Shown here piece after piece: positions 3,342-52,990 of a stretch of DNA of 64,000 bases. This stretch comes from a virus (taxonomy: Duplodnaviria > Caudoviricetes), in the IMG/VR virus record IMGVR_UViG_3300043021_000113; one strand, 5' to 3'. The stretch's first letter is position 1. Every line of letters begins with the position of its first letter. A model generated the notes under the pieces. It saw only the letters and a list, made by a program, of their open reading frames with translations, was not told the origin of the DNA and did no database searches. A program made the translations under genes and the position numbers.

Positions 3342-3704
3342 TTAATATCTATTTATAATTTCTTTTAATAATTGATTTTGTGTTTGATCATACATTGGGT
3401 TTGCATCCTCGATTAACTCCTTAATTTTAGTCAATTTTAAGCCTTTATAAAGCTTCGAATTTTTAATAAGCCACTTCTTCGGTAGTTGATCGTAAACTTC
3501 ATAGCCGTCAAAATAAAGGCCTTTAATAACACATATTACATGGAAAACATCTTGAGGATCATTAGCGAATCCATAATAAACAAAATCTACATCATCATTG
3601 AATCTTTCTTTAATAAATAAAGCCAAAAAACCACAGCCTCCATTATATAAATTTTTAATGTTAGCTTTGATTTCTTGACTCATTTTCTTTAATTTTTCAA
3701 TCAT
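3342..3704 (-). CDS. hypothetical phage protein
   Basis: ORF with GGC..A / HV / YFDG motifs. Confidence 0.7.
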   Translation of the reverse strand: MIEKLKKMSQEIKANIKNLYNGGCGFLALFIKERFNDDVDFVYYGFANDPQDVFHVICVIKGLYFDGYEVYDQLPKKWLIKNSKLYKGLKLTKIKELIEDANPMYDQTQNQLLKEIINRY

Positions 3705-4108
3705 AAATAACCACCAGCCATAACTGCGAAAATATCTGCTATTTCGTTTCCATATAAACCCTTATGGCCTTTTATATGTGTAAGGATTATTTGGTCTTTT
3801 ACTTCTTCATAAAGAGGAATTAAAATATCCCAAAGATCATTATTAGCATTTCTTGACCAATTTTTAGTAAGAGTTCCTATGCAATACATGCTATCGCTAA
3901 AAACTTCGCAGTTAATCTTAAGTTTTTTTATGTATCTAAAGGCAGCAACCAACCCGAACATCTCTGCTCGTTGGTTGGTCGCATTTTCTAAAGGTTGAGC
4001 ATAGAAAGCTTTTAACTTTCCATCCTCTATCAATATAAAGCTATAGCCGCCTTTTTGTTTACTTTGACTGTAAGCTCCGTCAGTGTAAATTTCAACGCGT
4101 TTTAACAC
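3701..4108 (-). CDS. rnhA: ribonuclease HI
   Basis: IYTDGA, TNQRAE, SDSMY, HIKGHKG..GNEIAD; likely GTG start at 4108. Confidence 0.92.
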   Translation of the reverse strand: MLKRVEIYTDGAYSQSKQKGGYSFILIEDGKLKAFYAQPLENATNQRAEMFGLVAAFRYIKKLKINCEVFSDSMYCIGTLTKNWSRNANNDLWDILIPLYEEVKDQIILTHIKGHKGLYGNEIADIFAVMAGGYL

Positions 4109-4205
4109 TGCCTGGTCTTGTGTGAGCTTTCTGATAATCTCCTGGTTGAGTATCAAACCAACGTTGTCTTCCTTCTAATTTTTTAACTTTCTTTGCGTAC
4201 TTCAT
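4092..4205 (-). CDS. 37-aa basic protein (not in ORF track)
   Basis: MKYAKKVKKLEGRQRWFDTQPGDYQKAHTRPGSVKTR; fills the gap between MoxR and RNase H. Confidence 0.5.
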   Translation of the reverse strand: MKYAKKVKKLEGRQRWFDTQPGDYQKAHTRPGSVKTR

Positions 4206-4225
4206 GATTTTTGATTTTTTATAAA

Positions 4226-5443
4226 TTAAAGAATGATTCTCTTTATTACATCTTTATTTGTAATTAACTTTTTAACTCTTGCTGGATATTTAACAGTAAG
4301 TGTTTTTATCATATTAAATATTAAATCTTCACTTAAAAGTTTTTTACTCTTATTCTTGTCATCTATAATCTCAAGAATTCTTGTTACTATAGGATCACTC
4401 TTAGTTCCTTTTTGAGCAAATAAACTTTCAATATGATTTATAAATCTAATTGATAATATGCTTGCAATGTCTGCTCTGTAAATATCTTCAGTTCCTCGTT
4501 TTTCATAAACGCATTCTTCAAGCTTCTTAGAAGCCTTTTCCCATTCAAGATTTAATAATTCTTCAGGAGTAATTAACTTGTGAAGTTTATTATTAATAAA
4601 TGTTGTAAACATATTGCCAACTGTGTTTTTGTCATCATCAAAACAACCATTAGCAATATTTAAAATTAACGCTAAAGATTCAGGAGTTGACCAATCTTTA
4701 ATTCCAGAAATAGTATTAAAGAAAGTTGTCATAGATCTCGCGTTAATAGTTAAATTTTCTTTCTTTGTTATAAGCTCAGGTGCCCATAAAAGAAAATTTA
4801 TTGCCTCATCTCTTAATCCGTATTCACCAGCCCATTTTGACCATATTTTAACGTCAAATTCAACATCAAAAGTAATATATCTTGACTTCATCGCAGCATC
4901 AAGAGATACTCCCAACGTATAATCTGCATTATCTGGATTTTCTGACAAGATAATTGTTGAACCTTTAGGTAGAGACCAAGAAGTAAACGCTTGAAGATTT
5001 ATAATCTCCATTACGGCTTGCATAAGCATTGGGCTGCAACGCGTAAAATCGTCCATTAGAAGGACGACAGGCTCGTTTGCTTGAGGAACCCATGAAGGGA
5101 TAGAATAACCCATCCTATGGTTTCCTGTAACTGTAGCTCCAGCTTTGATATATTCTGGTAAAATATCTTTAGCTATCCACTCACAGTTGCCATTTATACA
5201 CACTTCATATTCTTTTAAGGGAAATCCCAGAAGATCTCCTGTCTCCTCTAATTGACTTAGACGTAAAGTTTGAAATGGCATGTTTAATTCTTGCGCTAAT
5301 TGCTCTATTGCAGACGTTTTCCCTAATCCCGCGTCACCACGCAATGATACAGCAACTGCTTTCTTATTTTGTGCTGCTAATTCTTTATTATTGTTGATTA
5401 TATAAGTTAAAACTTCCTTGATCTCTTGTATATTATATTTCAT
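4226..5443 (-). CDS. MoxR-family AAA+ ATPase
   Basis: Walker A GDAGLGKT, Walker B LLMDDF; adjacent to a VWA gene. Confidence 0.9.
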   Translation of the reverse strand: MKYNIQEIKEVLTYIINNNKELAAQNKKAVAVSLRGDAGLGKTSAIEQLAQELNMPFQTLRLSQLEETGDLLGFPLKEYEVCINGNCEWIAKDILPEYIKAGATVTGNHRMGYSIPSWVPQANEPVVLLMDDFTRCSPMLMQAVMEIINLQAFTSWSLPKGSTIILSENPDNADYTLGVSLDAAMKSRYITFDVEFDVKIWSKWAGEYGLRDEAINFLLWAPELITKKENLTINARSMTTFFNTISGIKDWSTPESLALILNIANGCFDDDKNTVGNMFTTFINNKLHKLITPEELLNLEWEKASKKLEECVYEKRGTEDIYRADIASILSIRFINHIESLFAQKGTKSDPIVTRILEIIDDKNKSKKLLSEDLIFNMIKTLTVKYPARVKKLITNKDVIKRIIL

Positions 5444-5448
5444 CTTTA

Positions 5449-7780
5449 TTACTTTTTATTTTTTGGAATTAAAATTGTTTTACCTGGATATTCTGATTTG
5501 TGATCTCCATCTGAAGATATAAGCCAAATCCAATGTAATTTTTCAGCTGGCTTTTTATCTAAATAACCATCGGTAAAATAAACTGTAGTTGTATAAACAC
5601 CTTTTCTTTCTTCTAAATATTCAACAATAGGTACACAAGAAGTACCGCCACCACCTGTTATTTTACAATCTGGCTTACCTTTATATTCATAAACACGGCC
5701 TATGTGGCAATCGCATTCTAAAATATCAATAGCAACACCTGATTTGTACATATGGTGAACTTCAGTGAAAAAGTCTTTTAAATCTTCATCATTAATTGAT
5801 CCTGACGTATCAATTGCAACTAAGATTTTTTGTTTGAATTTAATTTGAGTTTTTGAAAAATCCTCAAATCTTCTTGACTCTCTCTTTCTGTTTTTCTTCT
5901 GAAACATTTGTGTTGAATTACCAACAACTCGTTTAAAATAATTTTTCCAATTAAAAACCGGAGGTTCAGGTTTTAATAATTTTTCAATTAAACTCCTTAA
6001 TTCTGCCGGAATAGAACCAATACCACTTGCTGAGCTCTTCATCGTTTCCTCTGCTGCACTCTTCAATTGATGTTCAATTTGATTCTTGACTAACTGCTTT
6101 TGAGAATCTGGAAGACTGTCAAAATCTTTCCATAACTTATGAGATCCAACATTTTCTCCTTGTTGTGGTGCATCTTGACCTTCAAGTTCTCTGTAAAGCT
6201 CTTTGTAATAATAATTAGTACCTGCTCTTGGATCTAAAGATTTACCAACAATCTCATTTAACGATTCAAGAGTTACTCCATCACCTGGTAAACACGTATC
6301 TTTATCTTTAAGCTCTGCATTGTTAATTATAATCTGGTTAACTTCACAATCCGCAGCTATGTTAAATAATTCTGCATTATCAAACATTGTACGCATTGTA
6401 AGGTGTCCTAGTGCTATATGAAGCTTTAATACCTCAATTTTCATTGAGGAGTAGACTATCCCTTAACCCGGTCTGGGTTGTCTATTATAGTCGTTGAACG
6501 TCTTTCTTGTAAATAATTATTAAAAATATTATATTTTCTTAATAAATAAATTGTAGCATTTTTATAAATATATTCTGAAAATTTAATAGAATCTTTAACT
6601 GAAAATTAAAGTTGATATAGAATAGAAGGGTCGCCATTTTGAGTTTTTCTATGCCTTTCATAAATTTTAATATTTTTCAAATTTAAATATTTAATTAATT
6701 TCTGCATAAATTTTAATGATCCACAACACATACCACTTCTAATAGTTTTAATGGTTTTAATTTTATTGCTGTTATTATAAACACCAACTGTTCCATCGCC
6801 ATCAAAATATCCTCTAATAAAATGATTTATTAAATTTTTAGGTAATATATTTTCACCTGGAAATTCAATTGTTAATGATTTTCTTTCAGTACATCCACAA
6901 TTTATAAGATCTTGCGCTAGTTTATTGTCTGATATATTCAATTTAAAACATTCTTTATTAAACTTTTTATGATATTCTCTATATATAAGCCCTGTATATT
7001 CAATGTGCTCTTTAAATTTATCGAGCCATTCAATATCTTTAGATATTAGAGTTACACTATAAGAATTTTTATTATTTCTAACGCATCCGTCAGCATATAA
7101 AGCACCAAGCCAATATGCTTTTTCTTCAGTATCAATTTTTTCAAAAAAATTAGAATTACAAGTATACTTTCGATTAGTTCCTTGAGCTCTTGTTATTCCT
7201 AATTTTTTTAAAATTTTCAATACTGTATTTTCACCAAAATTGAATTGTTTTCCAATATTTTTGGCAGAAAACTTTTCGTTTAAATATAAATTTTTAATAA
7301 TTTCTAATTGTTCTTCTGTTACATTATCAACTTTATTATACATAATACATGAATTTTAATGAAAAATATCATGTACAAATATAATAAATTAAAACATAGA
7401 ACACAAGAAATTTCGCTGCGGATTTCCCAATTCTTTAACTTTTTACTGTCTCGTTGTGATTAGCAACGCCCTTATATATATTACTATTATAAGTTAGTAT
7501 TAAAGACTTTAGGGGGTTCCCGCAATTTAAGACTTTCTACTGTATATTCCTATACAGCGGGTCCTTCAATTTGAACCTCATGAAGCAATATATTTACCTG
7601 TTGAATATCTGTGAGTGAATCCCAGAATTCTTGGTTAATATATAAGATCGTATTTATACCTCTAAGTCCCACAGCCAATGTTGGGATGCTCTTTGAAACT
7701 TCTTTTTGAATTCCAGAAAGAAACAACCCATAAAATGGCTCTGAGATTATCAATTTACGGCAAGCCTTTTCTATTGTCAT
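5449..7780 (-). CDS. HExxH metallopeptidase-like plus VWA domain protein (MoxR partner), spliced: exons 7780-7574 and 6423-5449
   Basis: Joining exons restores HEV|LH; MIDAS DTSGS, GGGGT and TDG in exon 2. Confidence 0.9.
6424..7573 (-). mobile_element. group I intron in VWA/peptidase gene
   Basis: 5' exon ends in U, intron ends in G; P1 GGUU/GACC, P10 GAAG/CUUC; core GUUCAACGACUA and GAUAGUCU. Confidence 0.9.
6456..7343 (-). pseudogene. intron-encoded LAGLIDADG homing endonuclease with in-frame TAA at 6606-6608
   Basis: LGALYADG and IRGYFDGDG motifs; frame continues 49 codons past TAA, including IYKNATIYLLRKY. Confidence 0.75.
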
Positions 7781-15911: not shown

Positions 15912-15948
15912 AAAAAAAAAGAGGGCCCAGAATCACTTCTGAACCCTC
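15912..15948 (-). terminator. intrinsic terminator
   Basis: GAGGGUUCAGAA...UUCUGGGCCCUC followed by a U-run. Confidence 0.7.
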
Positions 15949-16266
15949 CCGAATTAATAACCACATAAATAAAACACAAAAGCTCTTTCCCTATAATAAG
16001 CGTTTAGACAATAATTAAAACAAGAACTAAGACCACCACACCAACAATGACCAGGACAAAGGAAAATTTGGGGTGCAGTGCGAAAATACATATTTAACTA
16101 TAGAGTGAAAATGACTTATTAAGGGAACAAAGGAAAAGCAAAAATCTTGATCGTTTATTATGTAAACAATAAAAAATAAAAGGAGATATTAATTTTTAAA
16201 CTTTTAAATTAAGAATTAAAAATCATCGATAAAATTTTTAACATTTCCTTTGGCTTTTGTGCTTAT

Positions 16267-29715: not shown

Positions 29716-30357
29716 TTAATCAATATTCCAATAATCTATTTCTTCATTTAATATTGCTTCATCCCAAGATAATTCATATCCTGTAGAAGTATAATCATTT
29801 TCTCTTAAATATTTAAATTTACATTTAAGCGTAAATTCTTTAGATTTACTAACTAATTTTTTATATTCTTTTTCATCAAAAATAATATTATATATTTTAT
29901 TATCAGTTAAACACTGTACACAATAAAGATTATTTTCAATAGATTTATAATAAATTTGACGAGATTTTATTTTTATTTCTTCATTAGTTAAAGCATTAAA
30001 TATTTTTAAATAAGAAATATTAAAAGGAGACCAAGAAGAATATTTAAATATATTTGAAAATTTAAATTTTACTTCTGCTTCAAAATCTTTATAAGTTTCA
30101 TTCCATTTTTTTTCAATTTCTTTTATATTTAATTTATATTTAGAATATAAAATTGGAATTTCATTATATTTATTTTTATTATAATTATTTAAATATTCAA
30201 TTTTACAATAAAAAAAACCATTCCAACCAATATTTCCCCATTTTACTTCTTCATTATAAATTGTCCATTCATCATTTATTTTTTTAAAAGAATTTTTATT
30301 TAAAGAATCAAAATTTAATGAATGATAATAACAATTTACAAATTCATTATTATTCAT
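29716..30357 (-). CDS. hypothetical protein
   Basis: N-terminal half resembles the same family (LNKNSF..I...W..Y, YCK, IPIL.S). Confidence 0.65.
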   Translation of the reverse strand: MNNNEFVNCYYHSLNFDSLNKNSFKKINDEWTIYNEEVKWGNIGWNGFFYCKIEYLNNYNKNKYNEIPILYSKYKLNIKEIEKKWNETYKDFEAEVKFKFSNIFKYSSWSPFNISYLKIFNALTNEEIKIKSRQIYYKSIENNLYCVQCLTDNKIYNIIFDEKEYKKLVSKSKEFTLKCKFKYLRENDYTSTGYELSWDEAILNEEIDYWNID

Positions 30358-30411
30358 AACAACTCTGCGCTTAATCTACACAACGCCTAGACTTTAAATA
30401 AATTAATTAGT

Positions 30412-32320
30412 TCGGTTGAGGGAATTGAACCCTTCAATGGCAAACCTGCGCAACCGATAAATTGCTGACTTTCACAAGCAAGCAATCCCGCAATTACAAA
30501 TCATATTAATTCAAAATTATGAAAACCTTTGTAGCTCTCTAGGAATCGAACCTAGAACTACCCACCAGGAAGCTTGAAACCTAATTTCACAATTAAGTTT
30601 GCACTAAAACCAATAAAAATACTTAACTTCATGAAAACAAACAATACGTGTGACTTTCCGGGAATTGAACCCGGAATTACCCAAACCAGGAAGTCGCAGC
30701 TCTAACTTCACAGCCAAAACTGATAAAATCTAACTATTTAACTATTTACCATTTTAAAAAATTATCAAAATGAAAAAAATCACAGAAAATGTGCGGCTCT
30801 CTGAGAATTGAACTCAGAATTACCCAAAAAACCAGGAAGCCACAAACCCAGTTTCACAACTGAATTTGTAAATAAAAAATCACACAAAAAATATATAAAA
30901 AATATTATGTGAGGCTTGCTGGGAATCGAACCCAGGATCAATCTAACCGTAGACAAGCCGAGAATAAACCTAACTTCACAGTCCAGCTATTCTAAGTGAA
31001 AAAAACAAAAATTATGATATACAAATGTTGAGGCTTTCCAAGAATTGAACTTGGAATTATCCATACCAGGAAGCCAAATTTTAAAGACGCCGAATTTCAC
31101 AACCCAGCGTCTTTGTGTAGTGTGTCTAATTTTTAATGAACTATTGTTTTGTTATTATTAAAGTAAATGTACAAAGATGAAGTGGACTTCTAGGAATTGA
31201 ACCTAAAATTACCTAAACCAAGAGTCCATATTTAAAAGAGCCTAATTTCACAATCAAGCTCTTTTTCTTAGCATGTTTTACTAATTCTCTATATTATGAA
31301 CAAAGTACAATTCTATTCGTGGCCCGCTGGGAATTGAACCCAGCATTACCTAAACCAAGAGGCCTCAAGCCTAGCTTCACAGTCAAGCTTGTTGTAACAA
31401 CTTAAATTTTCAAAAAAACATGATTATATTATGAGTATGGCGGCCTTTTAGGAATCGAACCTAATTTTAATCCAATAAGGCCAATAAATCTCCAAATTTC
31501 ACAACTTAGAGATTCAAAAATTATTATCAACTAATTCAAAACTATTATTTATAAAAAGCGTGACTACAAATGTAGTGGTCTTTTAGGAATCGAACCTAAA
31601 TTACGCTAACCTGCAAGACCAACCCTTAATTTCACAATTAAAGGGTAACAATAAACTAAAAATAAATATATATGGAAAATCAAACTCTGTGGCTTTTAAG
31701 GACTCGAACCTTTATGCACGCCAAAACACATGTAAAGCCAGTTGTGTTTTTCATGGTTATCAAGTACGATATTATGTGAATATATGTGAATAATACTGCG
31801 ATATTATAAAAAGAACTGCCGAACTTCACAGCCCAGCAGTTCGCGCTTTAATCATATTAATTTAATATAAAAATACATTTCAAAAAGAAACTTTATGCGT
31901 GCGGCTTTCGAGGACTTGAACCTCAATGTATGCCTTTATACATAGAAAGCCAAATAATCTAATTTCACAATTAAATTATTTTTTACCCAACACTAAAAAA
32001 TTAACATGATATGAAAAACGTTGAGGCTTCTAAGGATTCGAACCTTAATAGCGCCTAACCGCGAAGCCCAAAATTCCTAATCTCACGATCGAGAATTTAA
32101 ATTTCAAATAACAAATCTTCAGGTTATGAAAAAATCATAAGTGCCTGCCTGGGAGTCGAACCCAGGAGTGGGATTTTGTAGACTTTAGTTGTGTATAATC
32201 AATTACTATTACCTGTTGAAACAAGTGATTTTAACTACATTTAATTTTAATTTTATTGTTAAAAGAAATTTATTGTTTATTTTAAAAAAATAAACAAACC
32301 CACTGTCTTCCTTGCCAGGC
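30412..32320 (-). ncRNA. array of 14 mini tRNA-like elements, 13 GUGA-tetraloop hairpins and 13 unique spacers
   Basis: tRNA-like units at 30412-30457, 30533-30574, 30652-30695, 30795-30841, 30913-30959, 31032-31075, 31183-31228, 31321-31364, 31442-31482, 31577-31620, 31690-31740, 31903-31951, 32025-32068 and 32143-32320. Each has a GUUCRAnUC T-loop and covarying stems. No ORF >=60 aa in the region. Confidence 0.9.
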
Positions 32321-32466
32321 TCTGAACCTTAACGCTTTAAGAGTTCAGTTGTTCAAAAGAACTGTAACGCTTTACATGAACCTTGAACTAATAAAAAAAA
32401 TTCGCCAAATTTTCCGTGATTACTCGAAGCACGGACTAAGTGATCATGAAAAAAAGGATCTGACCA

Positions 32467-35198
32467 TTAGTTGAGCCAGTATGGCTTATTACTAACAGCT
32501 AATATATCATGGTTTGCGAGTTTTAACTTTTCAGGATCTGTGTTAAATCTATAGCCAAGTATTTTACGATTCAACCTAAAATAACTTTCGGGACTTTCCT
32601 TAGTTATAACAGTGATCACATGTTGAAAAGTATTTTTATTGTCTACTTCTTCAAACTTGAATCCCTTATAAGCTCTAACTCTAACCGCTGGCTTTGTGAT
32701 ATATAAGCGTATTTTATAAATAAAACCTAGGTACACGCCGTTTACATCATATTTCCCGCGATTTGGGTCCTTGATATCTGAATACTTCATCTCACCCATT
32801 TTAAGGTTTCTGAACCTAAAAATCGGGTATACTCTAAGAGCTTTCCATTGTTAAGTTCAATTGAGATGATAAGCTTTTTTGTCTCATAATTTCTTATGCT
32901 TATATAATTAACATCGCATAAAATGCAAGATATTTCTTGATTTAATAATTCTTGTTTAAGACAAACTCGACCATCAGAAAGTATCTTAAAATAACAATTG
33001 TTAATTTCAAGTGTTTTGCTTTTTTTGGAAAGTTTACTAACGTTTATTGATTCCAAGTCTGGACATTTAGCCAGACTTGAAATTACACGTTCTTTCACTT
33101 CATCATTGCAAAACAAAATTTCTTCTCCTGATGTTGTTTTTATTATAAGTTTATATTGTTTCATTTATGAAAAATCACTATGAATAACAACTCCTTTGTT
33201 TTTTATTAGATGCAAACCATCTTTTATGACTATATGGTCAGCTGTACAGGATTTCCAGTATTCACCATACATTCCAGAAAGTTTGTATCTTATAAAACCA
33301 TTACTTACTACTTCTTGAAAATCGTCTTCATAAATAATTTCGTTAAAATCCAAATCTTCGTCTGAATGAACATTAACGGTTATTCCTTTAGGTGCTTTTT
33401 CAAGAAATTTTAAAAATTCTTCTTGATTGAATAAATAAAATCTATCTTTTAATCTAACTTCGTATCTCATTTTTTAAAAAGGCATATCGTCTAATTCTGG
33501 TTTCGTTGAGGTATCAAGCATTTTTTGTGCTTTTTTAATTTCAGTGAAAACTGATGATGCACCAGTCATAGTTGAAGAGTTATAATTAAAACTTAATAAT
33601 CCAGCTGGAAAACTAGCTTCTGCATAATATCCGCGGTCATGATAAGTTATCGTAAAAGTTGATAACGTGAACATCGGATAGCCTAAATAGCCAGTTATTA
33701 AGTTTTTATTATTATATGGGCCCCTATCTGTTTTTAGATGTAAACGACCATCTCCTGTTACTATGTAATGAGTACTGGTTATTAATACTTCGTTTTTATC
33801 TTTATAATTAACAGCACGGAGTTTGACATTTTTGTCGAACGCATCAAGTTCAGTGAAAAGATCCAGAGCATCTGCTAAGCTCTGAATCAATTCTATTTTA
33901 TCTTCATATTCTAATCTGTACATATATAACTATAAGTTGAGGTTCCAGAATTCTTGTTATGAGTTATTGTATGCTTTGTTTTATCTTTTAAAGTAAAATT
34001 AATGGTTACTTTGTCGTCTTCTTTTGTAAATATAAGATAAGTTGGAAAAACTCTAAGATCGCTTTTTATGCCGTCTTTATCTATATAATTATTTTTAAAA
34101 ACTACATGACCATTATTAAAAACACGGAATTTATCATCAGAAAATATTTTTGTTTGATCATTCGTCGAATCTACTTCTTGAACTCTAAAATCCCTTATGT
34201 CTTTATTATTAATTACTGCTGAATTAATAAATTTGTTTAATCCTTCGTTATTTACAAATATTGTTGTTTTATCAAATGTTATTCTATACATAGTTAAATA
34301 ATCATGGTTAACCTATACACCATAAGGTTTAGATGAATAATTTAATATAATTTAACAATTAATATGTCTTCAAAGCTATTTATAATCATTGCTTCGCCAT
34401 TTTTCTTTTTGAACATTGCTGCTCCTGATTCTGTAAATTTTACAAAATAAGCTAAAATGTCAAGATTATTTATTTTTATATAATAAAAAACGTTTGTATC
34501 TAGCTTTGTAAATTTGCAGTTTTTATCTATATAAAGAGAATTATTAGATAATGCGTTATGCATAAATCCTGGAGCTATTGGTTCAGCTTGACGAATGAAT
34601 TCTTGAATTTTAAAGTGTCGATACTCGCCAATAGATAAAGCAATTGTTACTGTATCATTAGCTATCTCTTTAATAACTCCAAACCAACCTTTAATTCGAA
34701 CGTAATTTCCGGTTTTTACTTCTAATTTCTCAAGAGCAAATGATCTGTGTTGATTAAATCCAGATTCATCAAATATCATTCCTAAGCATTTACAAGTTAA
34801 ATCTTGGTTTATTTGAACATCTAATGGATCGATTATTACTCTTGAATTATCAAGAGTTCTTCTAAGAATATATACTATCATAAATTAATTGATTTTTAAA
34901 ACTTGAGAGTATTTAGGATTTGAGCATTAAATGTTGGTGAGATTTTATTTATTCTTACATCACCAGATAATCTATCAACTTGGCCGTTTATAAGATGAAT
35001 GGAAATTAAAGTTATGCCGTCATTGAGCATTACTTCTACTTCATCTCCTCTGGAAATTACTTTAGTTTCTATATTAGTAACTCCTAAAGCAGCTTTAGTT
35101 AAATAGTCAATAGTGAAATTTTCACTTTTAACAATGCTTAATTGTTCCATGAAGCTTTCTTTTATACTTTGAAAGCTTGAAAATACTTTCTGTTTCAT
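32467..35198 (-). CDS. run of seven early hypothetical ORFs (32467-32799, 32787-33164, 33165-33470, 33474-33923, 33911-34291, 34342-34881, 34896-35198)
   Basis: Contiguous co-oriented ORFs; several start M(K/R)xY(K/E/R)(L/V/I) and may be remote paralogs. Confidence 0.7.
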
Positions 35199-38336: not shown

Positions 38337-38358
38337 TATTTATTTTTTTTTAATTCGC

Positions 38359-38401
38359 GCCCTAAGAAAGAATCGAACTTTCTTTAACTCCAAAGTAAGG
38401 C
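38359..38401 (-). ncRNA. solo mini tRNA-like element
   Basis: GCCUUA-CUUUGGAGUUA-AAGAAAG UUCGAUU CUUUCU-UAGGGC; same architecture as the array units. Confidence 0.7.
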
Positions 38402-38479
38402 TCACTACATAAATATTCGTGAATGAATAACCACTACATAAAAAAAGAGATGAGAGCGCAATTGCGCTCCCATTTTTAT

Positions 38480-47367: not shown

Positions 47368-47958
47368 ATGGATTTTTTCGTTTATAATTCAGGTGATGGT
47401 TCATTAGATATTAACGAGCCACAAATATTTTTAATAAAAGAATTTGAAGCTTTATTAGACACAGAGCGTAACAAATGCAAAGAAGATAAAACCGGAAAAC
47501 TAAAACTTAGAGCTAGAAAAGAACTTGCTTATATATGGTTAAAGATGGATCCAAAAAGTCCATATTCTCAGTTTACAGAGTTAGAAGCTCATAACACAGC
47601 TCTTGACGATTCGGGTTTAACTAAAAAACAATTTGACGACGAAGTATTCAGGGCTGCTTGTAGAAAATATCAAGAAATTTTAGATTCTGACAGAATCCTT
47701 AGAATGATTAAAGCTGCACGTGGTGTTATTGATAAACTAGAATATTATTTAACGGAAGAAGTCGATTTTTCTGAGAAAAATTTACAAACAGGAGCGCCAA
47801 TATATAAAGCCAAGGATGTTATAGCAGAAATTAAAAATCTTGGTGACGTTATAACAGGTTTGAAAGACCTTGAATTAATGTACAAGAAAGGACAAGAAGT
47901 ATTAAATAATGGTTCAAGAGGTGATGCAACCCCAGGACGAAGAGATTTAATGAAATAA
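47368..47958 (+). CDS. hypothetical protein upstream of TerL (terminase small subunit candidate)
   Basis: Position and helical content only. Confidence 0.5.
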   Translation: MDFFVYNSGDGSLDINEPQIFLIKEFEALLDTERNKCKEDKTGKLKLRARKELAYIWLKMDPKSPYSQFTELEAHNTALDDSGLTKKQFDDEVFRAACRKYQEILDSDRILRMIKAARGVIDKLEYYLTEEVDFSEKNLQTGAPIYKAKDVIAEIKNLGDVITGLKDLELMYKKGQEVLNNGSRGDATPGRRDLMK

Positions 47959-50292
47959 TGGAAGTTATAGATGGCATAACTTGGGATTATGGGCCTAATG
48001 ATGAAATAAATTTCTTTGATAGGACCAAGTCATATTACTTGACTAAATATAGACCAATAGATGAAGAAAACGGTTTAGATTTCGTTTTAGAACCGTTCAT
48101 AGAGGATGCGATAAGATATAATAAAACCAAAAAATATTGTGAGTTTTCCGAAGGTTCTAAAGCTTATGCTGATTTCTGGAAAGAAAGAGACAAGCGAAAC
48201 ACTAATGGCTATGAAGTAAACGGCTATAGGATAACTGGTGATAATTATTTTTTTATTAATTTTTACAGGCTTATTGATCCTAAAACTCTTGTAGAAAACT
48301 TCCCAACATTTACTAATGTTCATTATGAATGGTTCCATTATGTAGAGATGTGCGAAAAACTGGGTAAAGACTGCGTAGCATTGAAACCTCGTGGGGTGGG
48401 TTGGTCAGAAATAGCAGCTAGTCTTTGTGTTTGTCCTTATTCAACTTTAAGAGATAAAACAATGTTAGCAGTTGCCGCTACAGATAAACAAATACAGCCA
48501 TTATGGGAAAAAATCTCTACACAATTAAACTGGTTAAATTTAAATACTCAAGGTGGTTATAAGCAATTACGACAAGTTAAAAATTCAGAAGCTGACATGT
48601 GGAAACGTGCAAGCATGAAAACAAAGGATGGAGAAGAACACGGTTCAATGTCTCAAATAAAAGGCTTGGTAGCAAATAATCCTAGAAATGTTCGTGGTTA
48701 TCGTTGCCATAGGTTATTTTATGAAGAAAGCGGATCAAATCCAGTTCTTAAAACTTCATGGGTTCAAGGAGAGGCTCTAGTAGTCAGAGTTGGACGTAAG
48801 ACAGGGACACGATATGCATGGGGCACGGGTAAAGAATATTTCTTATTTATTAAAAGGAATTCTGCTCCTTCGAAGAGGGATCTTCGAGAGTAAAATCGAG
48901 CAAAATCGGTAGAGACTGGAATGTTAATACCGAGGTAAGCGCTTAGATAGCGAATAGGCTAAGCGCCACCGTAGAGCGTAGCTAGTGAACAAATATAATC
49001 TAGCCAAGAGTGTTCGACACCTAGAACAGGTGAAAATGTACGCCGAGCTACAGAGAATGGATAATCTGTAGAAGTTGAGGATAAAAAGCCTCAACGATAA
49101 CATATTGGGTGATAGTGGCCTTGCCCTTCAAGGTTTAGCTGAAATGTTCAATAACCCTGACATTTTCGGTTGTCTGCCATGTTTACATAATTTCACAAAT
49201 ACCAATGAGTTTATTTATTCTGGATTTTTTATTCCTGCTTATAGAATGCATTTTGAATATCTAGACGATAGAGGAGTAACAAATACAGAAAAAGCCCGCG
49301 AATGGTTCGATAAAAACCGAAACAGTAAGCTTGACAACCCACAAGCTTTTTTAGAGTATTGTTCCGAATATTGCTATACACCAGATGAAGCATTAGTAAG
49401 ACAAGGAGAAAATCAATTTAACCAAATATTACTTGCTGAACAGTTGGCAAATATAACTATACACAAGATCATTAAAGAACCAGAACGTGGTTTCTTAATG
49501 GGAGGAAATGATGATGGCAAAGGTGGTAAGAATGCCATTATATGGAAGCCAAATGCTCACGAGGGAGATATTTTACTTTTAGAGGAACCAGAACGTGACG
49601 AAAACGGAAATATTATTAAAAACTTATATTGTGCGGGTATAGACTCAATCGATATAGGAACGAACGATTCAACAGGTCAATTGGACGTTTCCGATTTTTG
49701 CATAGTAATTTTAAGAAGACAACGTGGAATTCAAGAACCACGAATTGTTGCAATATATAAAAATAGACCAAGAGATATACGCATTGCTTATGACAACGCT
49801 TTTAGATTGTTAGATTGGTACAATGCAAAATGTGTTCTTGAAAATTCAAGAACTAATATAATAACTTACGCTAGAGAGAAAAAGAAACTTCATCATTTTT
49901 TAACTAGACCAAAAGCAACAATTACAAATTTAAAAACAAATACAACAATGATTGGTGCTCCTCCAACAGAAGGAGTGGTTAGACATTATTTGGAGCTTAT
50001 AGAGCAGTTTATAAATGATTATTACCAAGGTATAGCGTTTGTAGATGTAATCAATGAGCTTATGAAGTACACATACGAGAATAAACGTAAATTTGACATT
50101 GTGGCCAGCTTTGGGATGTGTCTCTTAGCCGATGAGGAGCTATTTGCTGCACCCATTGAATCTGTGGCACGTTTAGATAAAGAATGGCGAGATATAGGTT
50201 ATTATACAGGACCAGATGGAAGAAAACATTTTGGAGCAATACCAATAAGACAAAAAATAATTAAACAAGAATTAGGCGAAGGATGGATGTAA
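47958..50292 (+). CDS. terL: terminase large subunit, spliced: exons 47958-48830 and 49108-50292
   Basis: LKPRGVGWS, FYEESG, WGTG|GD junction, nuclease motif AGIDSID. Confidence 0.92.
48831..49107 (+). mobile_element. ORF-less group I intron (277 nt) in terL
   Basis: U|...G boundaries keep frame; P7 GCGUA/UACGC. Confidence 0.87.
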
Positions 50293-50555
50293 ATGAAATT
50301 GAAGATGAAATAAAACGCATGTTTGTTGAAGAACGATGCGTAGTTTTTAAAAAAGAACTTTCTGTAAAATATGATCCTAAAACTAGCACTTATGAGTTAA
50401 ATTTACACTTTAGAGGAAGAGAAAGACCTTGGAGTTTTATTTATCAAGGAACAAAAGAAGATTTCTTAAAATGTGTTAGAGATCAAATAAGAACAAGTCA
50501 ATTTGACAAAGTCGAGTATTGGGACGGATACAGAATAGAAAAACGAAACTTATGA
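50283..50555 (+). CDS. hypothetical protein
   Basis: ORF between terL and portal. Confidence 0.7.
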   Translation: MDVNEIEDEIKRMFVEERCVVFKKELSVKYDPKTSTYELNLHFRGRERPWSFIYQGTKEDFLKCVRDQIRTSQFDKVEYWDGYRIEKRNL

Positions 50556-52990
50556 ACAAAGAAGAAATAATAAGGCAAATTGATTCAGCAATTAGTCAGT
50601 TAGTTTATTCTAAACGTTCAATTATAAAAGCGTATAATTATTACAATTGTAAGAGAGATCCAGAACAGTTCAGACATCTTGAAGAGAATTACGGCTTAGG
50701 AACTCCAACACAAATTGAATTTATACCTTTAGTTAGAAAGCACATTGACGCATTAGTTGGCGAGTATACGAGTATACCTACAAAACCCAAGATTTCATGT
50801 AAGGACGAATCGACGTTATCTTGCATGATGCGTGATAAACAACTAGCAATAAATGCTGGGATATTTAAAAACTTAAAAAGCAAATTGAATAATTCAATTT
50901 TGCAGATATTCCAACAACAAGAACAACAACAGCAATCAGCAGCAGATCCGTTAATTGAAAAAGAGCTTTCAACTTTAGCCAGTGATATTGAAAAAGATTT
51001 CATAAGTGAATATGAAATAGCAGCGCAGAATATAATTAAAAATATTATGCAATCAAGAGCAATTGACTTTGAAACTAAAAAACAAATTTTAGCAAAGGAT
51101 TTGTTTATTACTGGCACGGCTTATTATAAAACACATAAAACAGTTAATAATAAAGCTTTTGATTTTGAAGTATTAAATCCTATTCATACGTTCATAGATA
51201 GAAACCCAAATAGTGTTTATTTAAAAAATTCTTACAGATCAGTTATAAGACGTTATATGAATAAACATGAAGTGTTAAATAAATATGGACACTTAATGTC
51301 TGACGAAAACATAGCTGAAGTTAAAAAACTTGATATTGGAACATCAAGAAATAATAATATTTATTATGTACGTAGTAACGAACTATTTGGTGATCCATTA
51401 GATTTCGCAGGAGTTCTTGGTGGAATGGAAACATTGCCAGGAATGCCAATGGATCGTGACGGTGTAAATAGGCTTAACAATTTACTTGAAGTTTTCGAAG
51501 TTGAGTGGCTCGATCAAGAAAGAGTAAAAGGAGAATTTATAACTTACAGATACGAAGGTATAAGAATAAACGGTAATATATATGTACCTATAGGCAAGGT
51601 TGAAAGTGTTCGTAGTATATCAAATCCAAATGAAACGTGTTTATCTGTTAATGGAATTTTCTTTTCTGACAGAAATTCAGAGCCATTTAGTCTTGTATTA
51701 GCTACAGCATCTTTGCAGGATTGATTGTATTTGTCCTGGGTAAACCCTGAGAATTGCTGGGACGTCCTTTTGGGATTATCAGCAGCCGAGCCCTTAATGG
51801 GAAGGTTCAACGACTATCGAAAGAATAATTAATCAAGTAGAGTAGGGATCAAGCGATCTCGAAGCACAGGGGCCATATAAATTATGGTATGATATAGTCT
51901 GAACTTCGCGGGAAACCGCGAGAGAGGAAGTAGCGAATCCTCGTAACACGAATTGAAATACGATATTTTACACTGGTACAGAGATAACGTCATATCTTCA
52001 AGTGGCGTAAAAGGTGATTGGTTGGATGTTTCAATGCTTCCTGATTTTTTAGGAGCAGACATTGTAGATAGAATCAAAAAATTTTATGCTTATAAAAAGC
52101 AATTAGGCATTGGCATTATTAATACTTCTCAAGAAGGAAGAGTTTTTAATAATAACACAACATTTGCTGGTTATGATGATAGTTTAAGAGCTGATGTTAT
52201 ACAAGCATTTGACATAGCGATTCAATCAATAGAAAACACTTGTTCTGGAATAACAGGAGTTGGTCGTGAAAGATTAGGTGGTATTGAACAACACGACGCC
52301 GTAAGTAATGTTGAGGTTGGAGTTAGAATGTCAGCAATTATTACTAGGCAATATTTCCAAGTTTTGGATACATTAATAAAAGAAATTCTCACTGACTGTT
52401 TAAATATTGCTAAAGTAGTTTATAAAAACGGTTATATAGGTTCTAATATTCTTGGAGATAAAATGCAGCAGATATTTACAGCTCTTCCTGAATATTACAC
52501 ATTAACTGACTTTGACATTCACGTTAACGATTCAACAGAAATAACAAAAGATGTTGAGACAATAAAGGCCTTTACTCAAGAATTAATAAAAGCTGGCATT
52601 ATAGATGCTCAAACAGCGGTTGATTCAATAGACACAAAAAGTCTTACTGAATTAAAAACAGTTGTTCGTTTAGGCTTAAAAGCTCAAGAAGAAAAGAACG
52701 GAGAAGCAGCACAATTTAAGCAACAAGTAATGCAACTTGAGCAACAATTAAAACAAGTTCAACAAGCATTACAACAAGCACAACAGCAATTGCAACAAGC
52801 ACAAAGTCAAGGCGAACAAAGCAAAATGCAGATTGAAAAAGAAAAGAACGAAATTGAATGGTACAAGGCTAAAAACGAAAAGAGTTATAAAGACCAAGAC
52901 ATAGAAGCTAAAAAACAACAGATACAAGCTGAAGTTTTGCAGCTTTACGATGGTAATAATAAAAACGATGAAATAAAAAATATTGTATGA
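50552..52990 (+). CDS. portal protein, spliced: exons 50552-51721 and 51956-52990
   Basis: Follows terL; LVGEY, ITGV.RERLG.IEQ; SLQD|KYD junction; Q-rich C-terminal coil. Confidence 0.88.
51722..51955 (+). mobile_element. ORF-less group I intron (234 nt) in portal
   Basis: P1 CAGGAU/GUCCUG, P10 GUAUUU/AAAUAC; AAUUGCUGG, UCAGCAG, GUUCAACGACUA, GAUAUAGUCU. Confidence 0.92.

Follow-up and report, generated by a model that had tools for sequence, protein, structure and literature searches.

Hairpins with a GUGA loop, common to Bacteroides and crAss-like phages, alternate with mini-tRNAs in a phage array and probably form the 3' ends of small RNAs

A crAss-like phage carries an array in which 13 hairpins with an invariant GUGA loop alternate with 14 mini-tRNAs that have no anticodon arm. 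The hairpin is a terminator-type element common to the host (Bacteroides) and crAss-like phages and, since it sits directly before the tRNA look-alikes, it probably forms the protective 3' end of small RNAs that tRNA-processing enzymes excise. The structure of the hairpins, their strand specificity and covariation, their presence both in the host and in phages, and a conserved junction of hairpin and tRNA were all observed.

Organisation of the array

The window is the whole stretch of DNA analysed (64,000 nucleotides, 64 kb). The array occupies positions 30407..32330 (minus strand), where the mini-tRNAs (TLS0-TLS13) alternate with 13 modules, each consisting of an AU-rich spacer and a GUGA hairpin. 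It has no open reading frame of at least 60 amino acids on either strand, ARAGORN reports no tRNAs, and an Rfam scan at gathering thresholds returns no families. The elements were scored with two models: R1, a covariance model of the GUGA hairpin built from the phage copies, and R2, a mini-tRNA model. At 12 of the 13 junctions the hairpin lies 0-7 nt upstream of a mini-tRNA; the exception is HP3, which is separated from TLS3 by a hypervariable 70-nt gap. The original prediction, which dealt with the hairpins, was silent on this abutting tRNA-like element. The elements are listed below in the order of transcription, with the position of the first G of each GTGA.

TLS0, 32138..32320, minus strand: acceptor-like stem and T-arm around an AU-rich insert of ~130 nt, from the fold and an R2 T-arm match
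HP1, 32069..32100, minus strand: hairpin (32-nt model window, CGUGAG loop region), G at 32086, 1 nt before TLS1, R1 36.6 bits
TLS1, 32020..32068, minus strand: acceptor stem, 3-bp D-like hairpin and T-arm, from the fold and R2 (53 bits)
HP2, 31951..31982, minus strand: hairpin, G at 31968, 0 nt before TLS2, R1 36.6 bits
TLS2, 31898..31951, minus strand: mini-tRNA, R2 41.5 bits
HP3, 31812..31843, minus strand: hairpin, G at 31829, terminator-like, the sole copy to combine a GC-rich 13-bp stem with a U5 tail, R1 36.6 bits
TLS3, 31686..31739, minus strand: mini-tRNA, R2 44.5 bits
HP4, 31618..31649, minus strand: hairpin, G at 31635, 2 nt before TLS4, R1 31.0 bits
TLS4, 31572..31620, minus strand: mini-tRNA, R2 52.9 bits
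HP5, 31485..31516, minus strand: hairpin, G at 31502, 4 nt before TLS5, R1 38.6 bits
TLS5, 31437..31482, minus strand: mini-tRNA, R2 45.5 bits
HP6, 31363..31394, minus strand: hairpin, G at 31380, 1 nt before TLS6, R1 34.5 bits
TLS6, 31316..31364, minus strand: mini-tRNA, R2 58 bits
HP7, 31234..31265, minus strand: hairpin, G at 31251, 7 nt before TLS7, R1 41.9 bits
TLS7, 31179..31227, minus strand: mini-tRNA, R2 59 bits
HP8, 31083..31114, minus strand: hairpin, G at 31100, 7 nt before TLS8, R1 40.1 bits
TLS8, 31027..31075, minus strand: mini-tRNA, R2 60.8 bits
HP9, 30962..30993, minus strand: hairpin, G at 30979, G x A mismatch at pair 5, 2 nt before TLS9, R1 29.9 bits
TLS9, 30908..30959, minus strand: mini-tRNA, R2 48.4 bits
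HP10, 30840..30871, minus strand: hairpin, G at 30857, 1 nt before TLS10, R1 36.0 bits
TLS10, 30790..30841, minus strand: mini-tRNA, R2 58.5 bits
HP11, 30694..30725, minus strand: hairpin, G at 30711, 1 nt before TLS11, R1 32.4 bits
TLS11, 30647..30695, minus strand: mini-tRNA, R2 62.6 bits
HP12, 30573..30604, minus strand: hairpin, G at 30590, 2 nt before TLS12, R1 33.6 bits
TLS12, 30528..30574, minus strand: mini-tRNA, R2 55.4 bits
HP13, 30458..30489, minus strand: hairpin, the GCUUGUGAAAGUC copy, G at 30475, 4 nt before TLS13, R1 32.7 bits, weak GibS alignment
TLS13, 30407..30455, minus strand: mini-tRNA, the last element before ORF 29716-30357, R2 39.5 bits

A blastn search of INPHARED with the array as query gave no match. 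Scans for the hairpin-plus-T-arm pattern returned, among the metagenome matches listed, only single chance or tRNA-like ones and, from IMG/VR, one unrelated phage only.

Structure of the hairpins and mini-tRNAs

All 13 hairpins are GUGA-looped and lie on the minus strand between 30458 and 32100, with stems of 8-15 pairs containing at most one mismatch each. When the copies are aligned without gaps, the 12-bp stem is 92.9% paired and 10 of the 12 pairs have changed on both sides, values that were reached in none of 500 shuffles, and sliding the partner strand lowers pairing to 55-57%. The invariant loop and covarying stem of the 13 predicted hairpins are thereby upheld, but the regular internal loop described with them is really a conserved triple of a G.U pair, a weak pair and a U.G pair. 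Counting from the loop, the fourth pair is G.U in eight copies and A-U in five, the fifth is variable (mismatched in 3/13), the sixth is U.G in 11/13 and the seventh C-G in 9/13. These pairs, together with the GUGA tetraloop and its U-A closing (Y-R closing pairs in the class definition), make up the signature of the hairpin type. The 13 copies satisfy the definition of this GUGA-wobble hairpin, on one strand only, by construction, R1 having been built on them; they score 30-42 bits and the next best site in the window 19.9 bits. GUGA hairpins of at least 7 bp occur 18 times on the minus strand of the window, 13 of them within the 1.7 kb of the hairpin array. Folding is far more stable for the minus-sense RNA than for its complement (means of -11.8 and -4.9 kcal/mol) because of the G.U pairs. 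A reading of UUGUGAA as a His anticodon loop was ruled out, as the tetraloop is symmetric and a 7-nt loop cannot form.

The mini-tRNAs fold into an acceptor stem, a mini D-like hairpin and a T-arm only. Acceptor stem and T-arm covary (90% paired, 9/11 pairs), the T-loop has the canonical UUCRAnU sequence and the acceptor stem stacks on the T-arm. As cloverleaf tRNAs they fail, with no genes found by ARAGORN and a best Rfam tRNA match of 16.6 bits against a cut-off of 29. In five Bacteroides genomes R2 found nothing convincing (best 23 bits). TLS0 has no preceding hairpin. Each mini-tRNA begins with a purine, a few nucleotides downstream of the hairpin.

The same hairpin in Bacteroides and other phages

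The expectation that similar hairpins occur in Bacteroides was confirmed, R1 matching 22 of 61 Bacteroides genomes (E<=0.1) with up to 37 bits, although these matches were chosen with a model trained on the phage copies and the shared signature is therefore partly circular. None of five non-Bacteroides outgroups matched (maximum 19.5 bits), and an order-wide sample gave chance level (9/121 genomes). Most host copies are terminators with a U-tail, placed after genes for sRNAs, tmRNA, tRNA or proteins; one is the terminator of a genuine FopS sRNA (RF04319, 74 bits) and further ones lie 3' of FopS-like UUUUUUCAU seeds. Large Bacteroides genomes contain few copies of the strict motif (5 matches over 30 Mb, 0-3 per genome). 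A reading as a general Bacteroides terminator was ruled out on this sparseness and on FopS terminators having mostly GGGA loops.

In other phage records R1 matches 7/13 (6 of 10 Crassvirales and MT835539.1), with the same pair pattern and mostly as U-tailed copies at gene ends. The real tRNA clusters of two crAss-like phages have the hairpin 3-8 nt upstream of genuine tRNAs: in MT835539.1 tRNA-Glu and tRNA-Ser each begin 3 nt after a copy, with 77 nt of spacer between them, and cr273_1 has tmRNA, hairpin, tRNA-Met, hairpin, 8 nt and tRNA-Leu in this order. This conserved junction gives an indication of how an ordinary phage tRNA cluster turned into the array. MT835470.1 (TerL 41% identical) has no hairpin or mini-tRNA matches. 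Bacteroides phage BS-TP1, also set aside, shares the RNR gene alone, is not crAss-like and has no R1 match.

The Bacteroides and Crassvirales terminators resemble the hairpins of the array in loop, closing pairs, wobble positions and strand-specific fold, but they mostly have a U-tract and stand at a gene end, whereas 12 of the 13 array copies have no U-tract and abut a mini-tRNA. No description of this recurrent GUGA / G.U / U.G hairpin at Bacteroides transcript ends was found in the literature searched. The motif points to Bacteroides as the likely host genus, and R1 is a handle for finding it in Bacteroides and Crassvirales genomes.

Relation to the FopS and GibS small RNAs

FopS and GibS have a single-stranded U-rich 5' seed with UUUUUCAU that pairs with start-codon regions, and a 3' hairpin (PMC11697453, PMC7366714). 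The GCUUGuGAuAAGU hairpin named in the original prediction is indeed present in the Rfam GibS consensus, but the phage units are neither FopS nor GibS by the Rfam models. Within 30300-32500, RF04319 (FopS) gives no match at E<=10 (family cut-off 56 bits; 62-82 bits on genuine host copies), and scores of 24.0 bits (E = 1.7) for GibS RF04182 and 25.2 bits (E = 0.02) for BTnc231 RF04180 stand against cut-offs of 115 and 80.4. Conversely, the terminators of 30 FopS loci, which comprise 16 distinct sequences, score at most 12 bits with R1 at the terminator position, and only 2 of the 16 have a GUGA loop. The conserved FopS 5' R1 seed (~21 nt, starting GUGUUUUUCAU) is absent from the array beyond a UUUUCAU core, and of the FopS-type U-tailed 3' terminator the hairpin is found in 13/13 units and the U-tail in HP3 only.

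The likeness is one of architecture. Both have a U-rich unpaired 5' part followed by a 3' GNRA-type hairpin (GUGA or GGGA), they are similar in size (FopS is about 71 nt), both are multicopy (13 here, 2-16 per host genome), and one FopS terminator fits R1. They differ in that FopS copies stand at individual loci that have their own promoter and U7 terminator, and typically have stems of 7-8 bp that do not match R1, whereas the phage copies stand in one array punctuated by mini-tRNAs, with U-tails missing in 12/13.

Folding predictions leave most of the 5' part of the putative RNAs single-stranded. The motif UUUUCAU, which is complementary to AUGAAAA, occurs in five spacers and in the leader upstream of TLS0; these 2.1 kb hold 6 of the 17 sense-strand TTTTCAT copies in the window, a more than tenfold enrichment. 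Against the start regions of ORFs in the window, the spacers did no better than shuffled spacers in duplex energy or longest exact complementarity.

Comparison between strains

Strain L210 differs from this phage by 7.3% in the neighbouring ORFs. In HP1-HP7 its loops and core are unchanged, and the stems show two compensatory pair changes, two changes to wobble and none that is disruptive: C-G>U-A in HP3, U-A>C-G plus C-G>U.G in HP5 and A-U>G.U in HP7. TLS1 has a compensatory D-stem change (C-G>U-A). Judged from sequence, the stem changes would be a sign of selection on the hairpins within the species. Spacers 1, 5 and 6 are nearly invariant, in contrast to the hypervariable gap between HP3 and TLS3. 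In strain L129 the array is nearly identical, but the near-identity continues into the adjacent ORF and could be the result of a recent exchange instead of selection.

Proposed processing and alternative explanations

Processing, stabilisation and a regulatory function of the array RNAs are what we infer from this arrangement. Transcription would traverse the whole array, RNase P would cleave at the 5' end of each mini-tRNA so that the upstream RNA ends in the hairpin, and this terminal hairpin would shield it from 3' exonucleases, while a tRNA 3'-end nuclease would cut after the preceding mini-tRNA. Thirteen RNAs, each 68-106 nt long, are the predicted products; a U-rich stretch with little pairing would make up their 5' part and a GUGA hairpin their 3' end, which would be the architecture of the host FopS/GibS sRNAs that block translation initiation. 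We rate it an even chance that the hairpins derive from terminators and cap the 3' ends of such RNAs, with RNase P cutting each one free at the mini-tRNA that follows; a point against it is that RNase P may be impeded by a hairpin lying only 0-2 nt from where it cuts. The fuller reading, to which we give somewhat less than an even chance, is that the phage encodes 13 FopS-like antisense RNAs matured by host tRNA-processing enzymes through degenerate mini-tRNA punctuation, each capped with a host-type hairpin for stability in Bacteroides and possibly recognition, and silencing host or phage translation initiation.

The array might instead be what is left of a decayed tRNA cluster, with the hairpins as leaky terminators, attenuators or folding insulators, functionless spacers and no sRNAs. 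The motif is mostly a U-tailed terminator in the host and other crAss-like phages, a relative bears a genuine tRNA cluster with the same hairpins, several hairpins of the window retain U3-U4 and no specific spacer targets were found in the window, all of which would fit such decay. However, a scan for intrinsic terminators (a stable hairpin with 5 or more U among the next 8 nt) passes HP3 only, the other 12 having no U-tract; 14 non-decoding mini-tRNAs are still kept, with compensatory changes; spacers 1, 5 and 6 are almost unchanged in the 7%-divergent strain; and UUUUCAU is enriched. We regard this explanation as unlikely, though not negligible.

The original prediction saw in the hairpin a protein handle, and a sequence-specific, CRISPR-repeat-like site where a dedicated phage or host protein (e.g. 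RbpA/RbpB) loads the guide upstream of it would account for an invariant loop and fixed-position wobbles kept in this phage, other phages and the host, which is typical of protein-recognised hairpins. However, published CLIP peaks place the RbpB footprint in the single-stranded 5' part of FopS and not in its hairpin (PMC11697453), which leaves RbpB binding of the hairpin unsupported. The flanking ORFs 32467-32799 and 29716-30357 give no RNA-binding lead in Pfam, PHROGs or the ESM Atlas, and homologues of them were found only in near-identical strains. Moreover, the motif is an ordinary terminator behind unrelated genes; a terminator-type hairpin common to host and phages makes a dedicated handle superfluous as an explanation of the conservation, and we consider it distinctly improbable.

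Between the early genes of phage T7, RNase III sites likewise leave protective 3' hairpins, and the weak or mismatched position between the wobble pairs within the conserved hairpin could be taken as a cleavage bubble at pair 5; the stems, at 10-14 bp, are shorter than usual RNase III substrates, however, a real mismatch occurs in only 3/13 copies and the host copies resemble plain terminators, so that RNase III-type processing is very improbable. A DNA-level element, such as a recombination site or a hairpin promoter of the kind used by some phage virion RNA polymerases (phage N4), would suit the purine starts of the mini-tRNAs but is barely credible, as each hairpin has 2-4 G.U pairs that turn into A x C mismatches in the template strand (-4.9 vs -11.8 kcal/mol), GNRA loops stabilise RNA and the motif is found behind host genes.

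Comparison with known systems

If small RNAs are released at the mini-tRNAs as proposed, phages of dominant human-gut bacteria would carry multiplexed regulatory RNAs, cut at tRNA look-alikes and stabilised at the end by a terminator hairpin borrowed from the host. Such a maturation route through tRNA look-alikes was not found described for bacteriophages in the literature searched.

Like this array, CRISPR arrays and synthetic polycistronic tRNA-gRNA arrays intersperse a structured repeat with variable segments on a single RNA, and in the synthetic ones tRNAs supply the cut sites. The phage array fails as a CRISPR, however: its repeats are not near-identical (~68% mean column identity) and covary, spacer acquisition is not evident, and none of 20 ORFs scanned against PHROGs matches Cas. 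Cleavage of tRNA precursors by the enzymes RNase P and RNase E also yields stable small RNAs, as with E. coli 3'ETS-leuZ and RNAs C and D of the phage T4 tRNA cluster; these are single RNAs among functional tRNAs, whereas the tRNAs here have no anticodon arm and are seemingly punctuation only. In the TMERs of murine gammaherpesvirus 68 and in MALAT1-mascRNA, a non-decoding tRNA-like element signals tRNA-processing enzymes to release the neighbouring RNA. The likeness lies in a viral or cellular non-decoding tRNA-like element joined to hairpin RNAs. Those systems are eukaryotic, being either Pol III units processed first by tRNase Z and afterwards by Dicer, or the 3' end of one lncRNA, whereas here a 13-unit bacteriophage array places the hairpin 5' of the tRNA-like element and processing is putative; if the proposal is true, the array would be to bacteriophages what the tRNA-miRNA units are to herpesviruses.

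Structure of the array

30407-32330, minus strand: array of 14 T-arm elements and 13 GTGA-loop hairpins

All 13 GUGA-loop hairpins of the original prediction (HP1-HP13) are present on the minus strand between 30458 and 32100, and this 1.7 kb holds 13 of the 18 minus-strand GUGA hairpins in the 64-kb window. The covarying stem that had been claimed also stands: in a gapless alignment of the copies (A1) the 12-bp stem is 92.9% paired and 10 of its 12 pairs are changed on both sides, values attained in none of 500 shuffles, and shifting the 3' strand by one column lowers pairing to 55-57%. An internal loop had been proposed as well, but no regular one is found. Counted from the loop, pair 4 is G.U in eight copies and A-U in five, pair 5 varies and is mismatched in three, 11 of the 13 copies have U.G as pair 6, and pair 7 is C-G in nine. 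Because of the wobble pairs the hairpin folds on one strand only, with a mean fold energy of -11.8 kcal/mol for the minus-sense RNA against -4.9 for its complement, which argues for the 13 hairpins acting as RNA rather than DNA structure. HP3 is the exception among the copies: its stem is GC-rich and 13 bp long, a U5 tail follows, and it alone passes a terminator scan.

With R1, a covariance model built from the hairpin, the 13 copies reach 30-42 bits. The runner-up in the window, at 19.9 bits, is a classical U9-tailed terminator before a ribonucleotide reductase gene (15919-15950, minus strand), with a 14-bp GC-rich stem and a GUGA loop. It lies immediately 5' of the probable true start of that gene; an open reading frame from the annotated ATG at 15966 would traverse the hairpin.

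The canonical T-arm GGTTCRAnTCC recurs in 14 elements of the array (minus strand, 5' to 3'), the mini-tRNAs TLS0-TLS13. Each consists of an acceptor stem of 6-7 bp, a D-like hairpin of 2-6 bp with GG in the loop, a short linker, and a T-arm with a UUCRAnU loop followed by a discriminator base and then C; in the folds the anticodon arm is absent from every one. The acceptor stem and T-stem are 90% paired with 9 of 11 pairs altered on both sides, and a covariance model of the element (R2) scores 13 of them at 39-63 bits, with no homologue found in five Bacteroides genomes. Across 30407-32330 there is no ORF of at least 60 aa on either strand, ARAGORN calls no tRNA, and no Rfam family attains its gathering score. 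Twelve hairpins have their 3' edge 0-7 nt from the next mini-tRNA, itself 43-54 nt in size; between HP3 and TLS3 lies a 70-nt stretch. Since the array opens with TLS0, which carries a 130-nt insert, and closes with TLS13, each unit of spacer and hairpin is flanked by two mini-tRNAs. The spacers are 37-70 nt long, AU-rich and mostly unpaired by prediction. UUUUCAU is present in five of them and in the leader, these 2.1 kb holding 6 of the 17 sense-strand copies in the window.

A lone tRNA-like element lies elsewhere on the minus strand, at 38354-38401 (wider region 38340-38470), where an acceptor-like stem of 7 bp and a T-arm enclose about 70 nt. It scores 19 bits with R2, receives no ARAGORN call, and is found in L130 as well.

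The hairpin in Bacteroides

The suggestion that similar hairpins occur in the host is borne out for the motif. R1 matches all of the first five Bacteroides genomes (20-32 bits) and, in a genus sample, 22 of 61 at E<=0.1, including six at E<=0.001 with a top score of 37 bits; five genomes of other lineages reach a maximum of 19.5 bits. A Bacteroidales order sample gave 9 of 121, about the chance expectation from the E-value cut-off, in a search that scored fewer candidates per genome. The pair pattern of the host copies is that of the phage copies, an agreement that is partly circular because the host copies were picked by a phage-trained model. Most host copies have a U-tract and stand at transcript ends: 3' of a genuine FopS sRNA (RF04319, 74 bits), of short RNAs starting with the FopS-like UUUUUUCAU, and of tmRNA, a tRNA and protein genes. 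The motif is sparse in Bacteroides rather than general: a strict pattern with a GTGA loop matches five times in 30 Mb, and versions with a GAAA or GGGA loop do not match at all. The identity of the phage element as a host-type, terminator-derived RNA hairpin is well supported.

Candidate sRNAs roughly 60 nt long that begin with UUUUUUCAU and end in a GUGA-wobble terminator occur in three Bacteroides genomes (G040, G068 and G027); Rfam gives no family at cut-off for them. In some Bacteroides genomes (among them G054, G060 and G024) a near-identical 32-nt GUGA hairpin and a second hairpin following it lie close to contig ends (5-12 per genome, at a distance of up to about 170 nt), and probably mark where a multicopy mobile or repeat element ends.

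Kinship with known sRNA families was not upheld. The hairpin that had been proposed for host sRNAs does occur in GibS, but GibS and BTnc231 score just 24-25 bits, and the FopS model has no match on the array at E<=10. Conversely, R1 matches no FopS terminator at 30 loci in 13 genomes (16 distinct sequences); these have stems of 7-8 bp and mainly GGGA loops, with GUGA in 2 of the 16 sequences.

Other phages and related strains

TerL and portal matches place the phage within Crassvirales. The closest classified relatives are Suoliviridae (TerL identity 25-28%), and two unclassified human-gut records are nearer (about 40%). The two genes (47958-50292 and 50519-52990, plus strand) are each in two ORFs about 180-230 nt apart, according to PHROG matches to N- and C-terminal halves, likely reflecting introns or a similar insertion.

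At E<=0.05, R1 matches 6 of 10 Crassvirales genomes. In cr52_1, cr10_1 and Dulem virus 42 the matches are at gene 3' ends. In MT835539.1, a related crAss-like phage, five hairpins lie within a genuine tRNA cluster. Two of them stop 3 nt 5' of tRNA-Glu and tRNA-Ser, and 77 nt of spacer separate tRNA-Glu from the next hairpin; cr273_1 has the order tmRNA, hairpin, tRNA-Met, hairpin, 8 nt, tRNA-Leu. Both phages thus repeat the junction of the window, with real tRNAs in place of the mini-tRNAs. As a gap of 3-8 nt has no space for a promoter, hairpin and tRNA must be co-transcribed and then parted by tRNA 5' processing. The junctions suggest that the window array descends from such a tRNA cluster, its tRNAs cut down to the parts read by tRNA-processing enzymes.

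The MT835539.1 cluster (3500-7600) also contains a suppressor tRNA with anticodon UUA, which hints at stop-codon reassignment, and, flanked by two GUGA hairpins, a tRNA-like sequence without a tRNA call. In cr273_1, 2 kb without annotated CDS (NC_055904.1, 29368-31364) may be a large non-coding RNA: about 1.1 kb that is richer in GC is surrounded by three GUGA-wobble hairpins, of which two have U-tails. A chance pattern-scan match in an unrelated phage (IMGVR_UViG_3300045988_183325, 8300-9300) showed a long stretch seemingly without ORFs, with a partial tRNA-like hairpin at its end and a five-tRNA cluster adjoining.

Among contigs of the same species, L129 has the complete array, in which 2.1 kb show two substitutions and a single indel; the genes upstream have 63 differences over 2.9 kb. 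Near-identity also extends into the ORF downstream, so the array may lie in a recently exchanged segment. The more informative L210, which covers HP1 to HP7, diverges by 7.3% in the adjoining ORFs. Its loops and wobble core are unaltered, two stem pairs show compensatory changes (HP3, C-G to U-A; HP5, U-A to C-G), two further changes give wobble pairs, and none is disruptive. TLS1 has a compensatory change in the D-stem, a former mismatch in TLS3 is now paired, and spacers 1, 5 and 6 are nearly unchanged. The stretch between HP3 and TLS3 (31740-31811, minus strand) is hypervariable in L210, with about 20 substitutions or indels between conserved flanking elements, and may represent a promoter region inside the array or the join between two sub-arrays.

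Proposed processing and function

As 12 of the 13 copies have no U-tract, transcription is expected to run through them. We infer the role of the hairpin from its place in the array: RNase P would cut at the next mini-tRNA, leaving the upstream RNA to end in a hairpin that would shield it from 3' exonucleases, and the cut after the preceding mini-tRNA would fix its 5' end. This predicts products of 68-106 nt, except for unit 3, which would give 161 nt unless terminated at HP3. FopS and GibS have a single-stranded 5' seed, which pairs with start-codon regions, followed by a 3' hairpin (PMC11697453, PMC7366714), and the predicted products would share this plan. Maturation of the array by RNase P and mini-tRNA cleavage into hairpin-capped, sRNA-like RNAs has, in our judgement, an even chance of being correct. 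No spacer target above chance was found inside the window, so any targets would be in the host or the remaining phage genome.

The main alternative, that the hairpins are merely leaky terminators or insulators of a decayed tRNA cluster, appears rather unlikely. It explains less readily the loss of the U-tract, the conservation of the spacers, the enrichment of UUUUCAU and the retention of 14 non-decoding mini-tRNAs by compensatory change. A dedicated handle protein is conceivable but not required and seems improbable, as the flanking ORFs give no lead to one, and RbpB, the proposed reader, reportedly binds its sRNAs in their single-stranded 5' part and is therefore unlikely to read the hairpin.

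The literature searched yielded no description of arrays of tRNA-like elements or sRNAs in crAss-like phages, nor of a Bacteroides terminator motif of the GUGA-wobble type. Herpesvirus tRNA-miRNA units, MALAT1-mascRNA and sRNAs within tRNA operons are the closest analogues.
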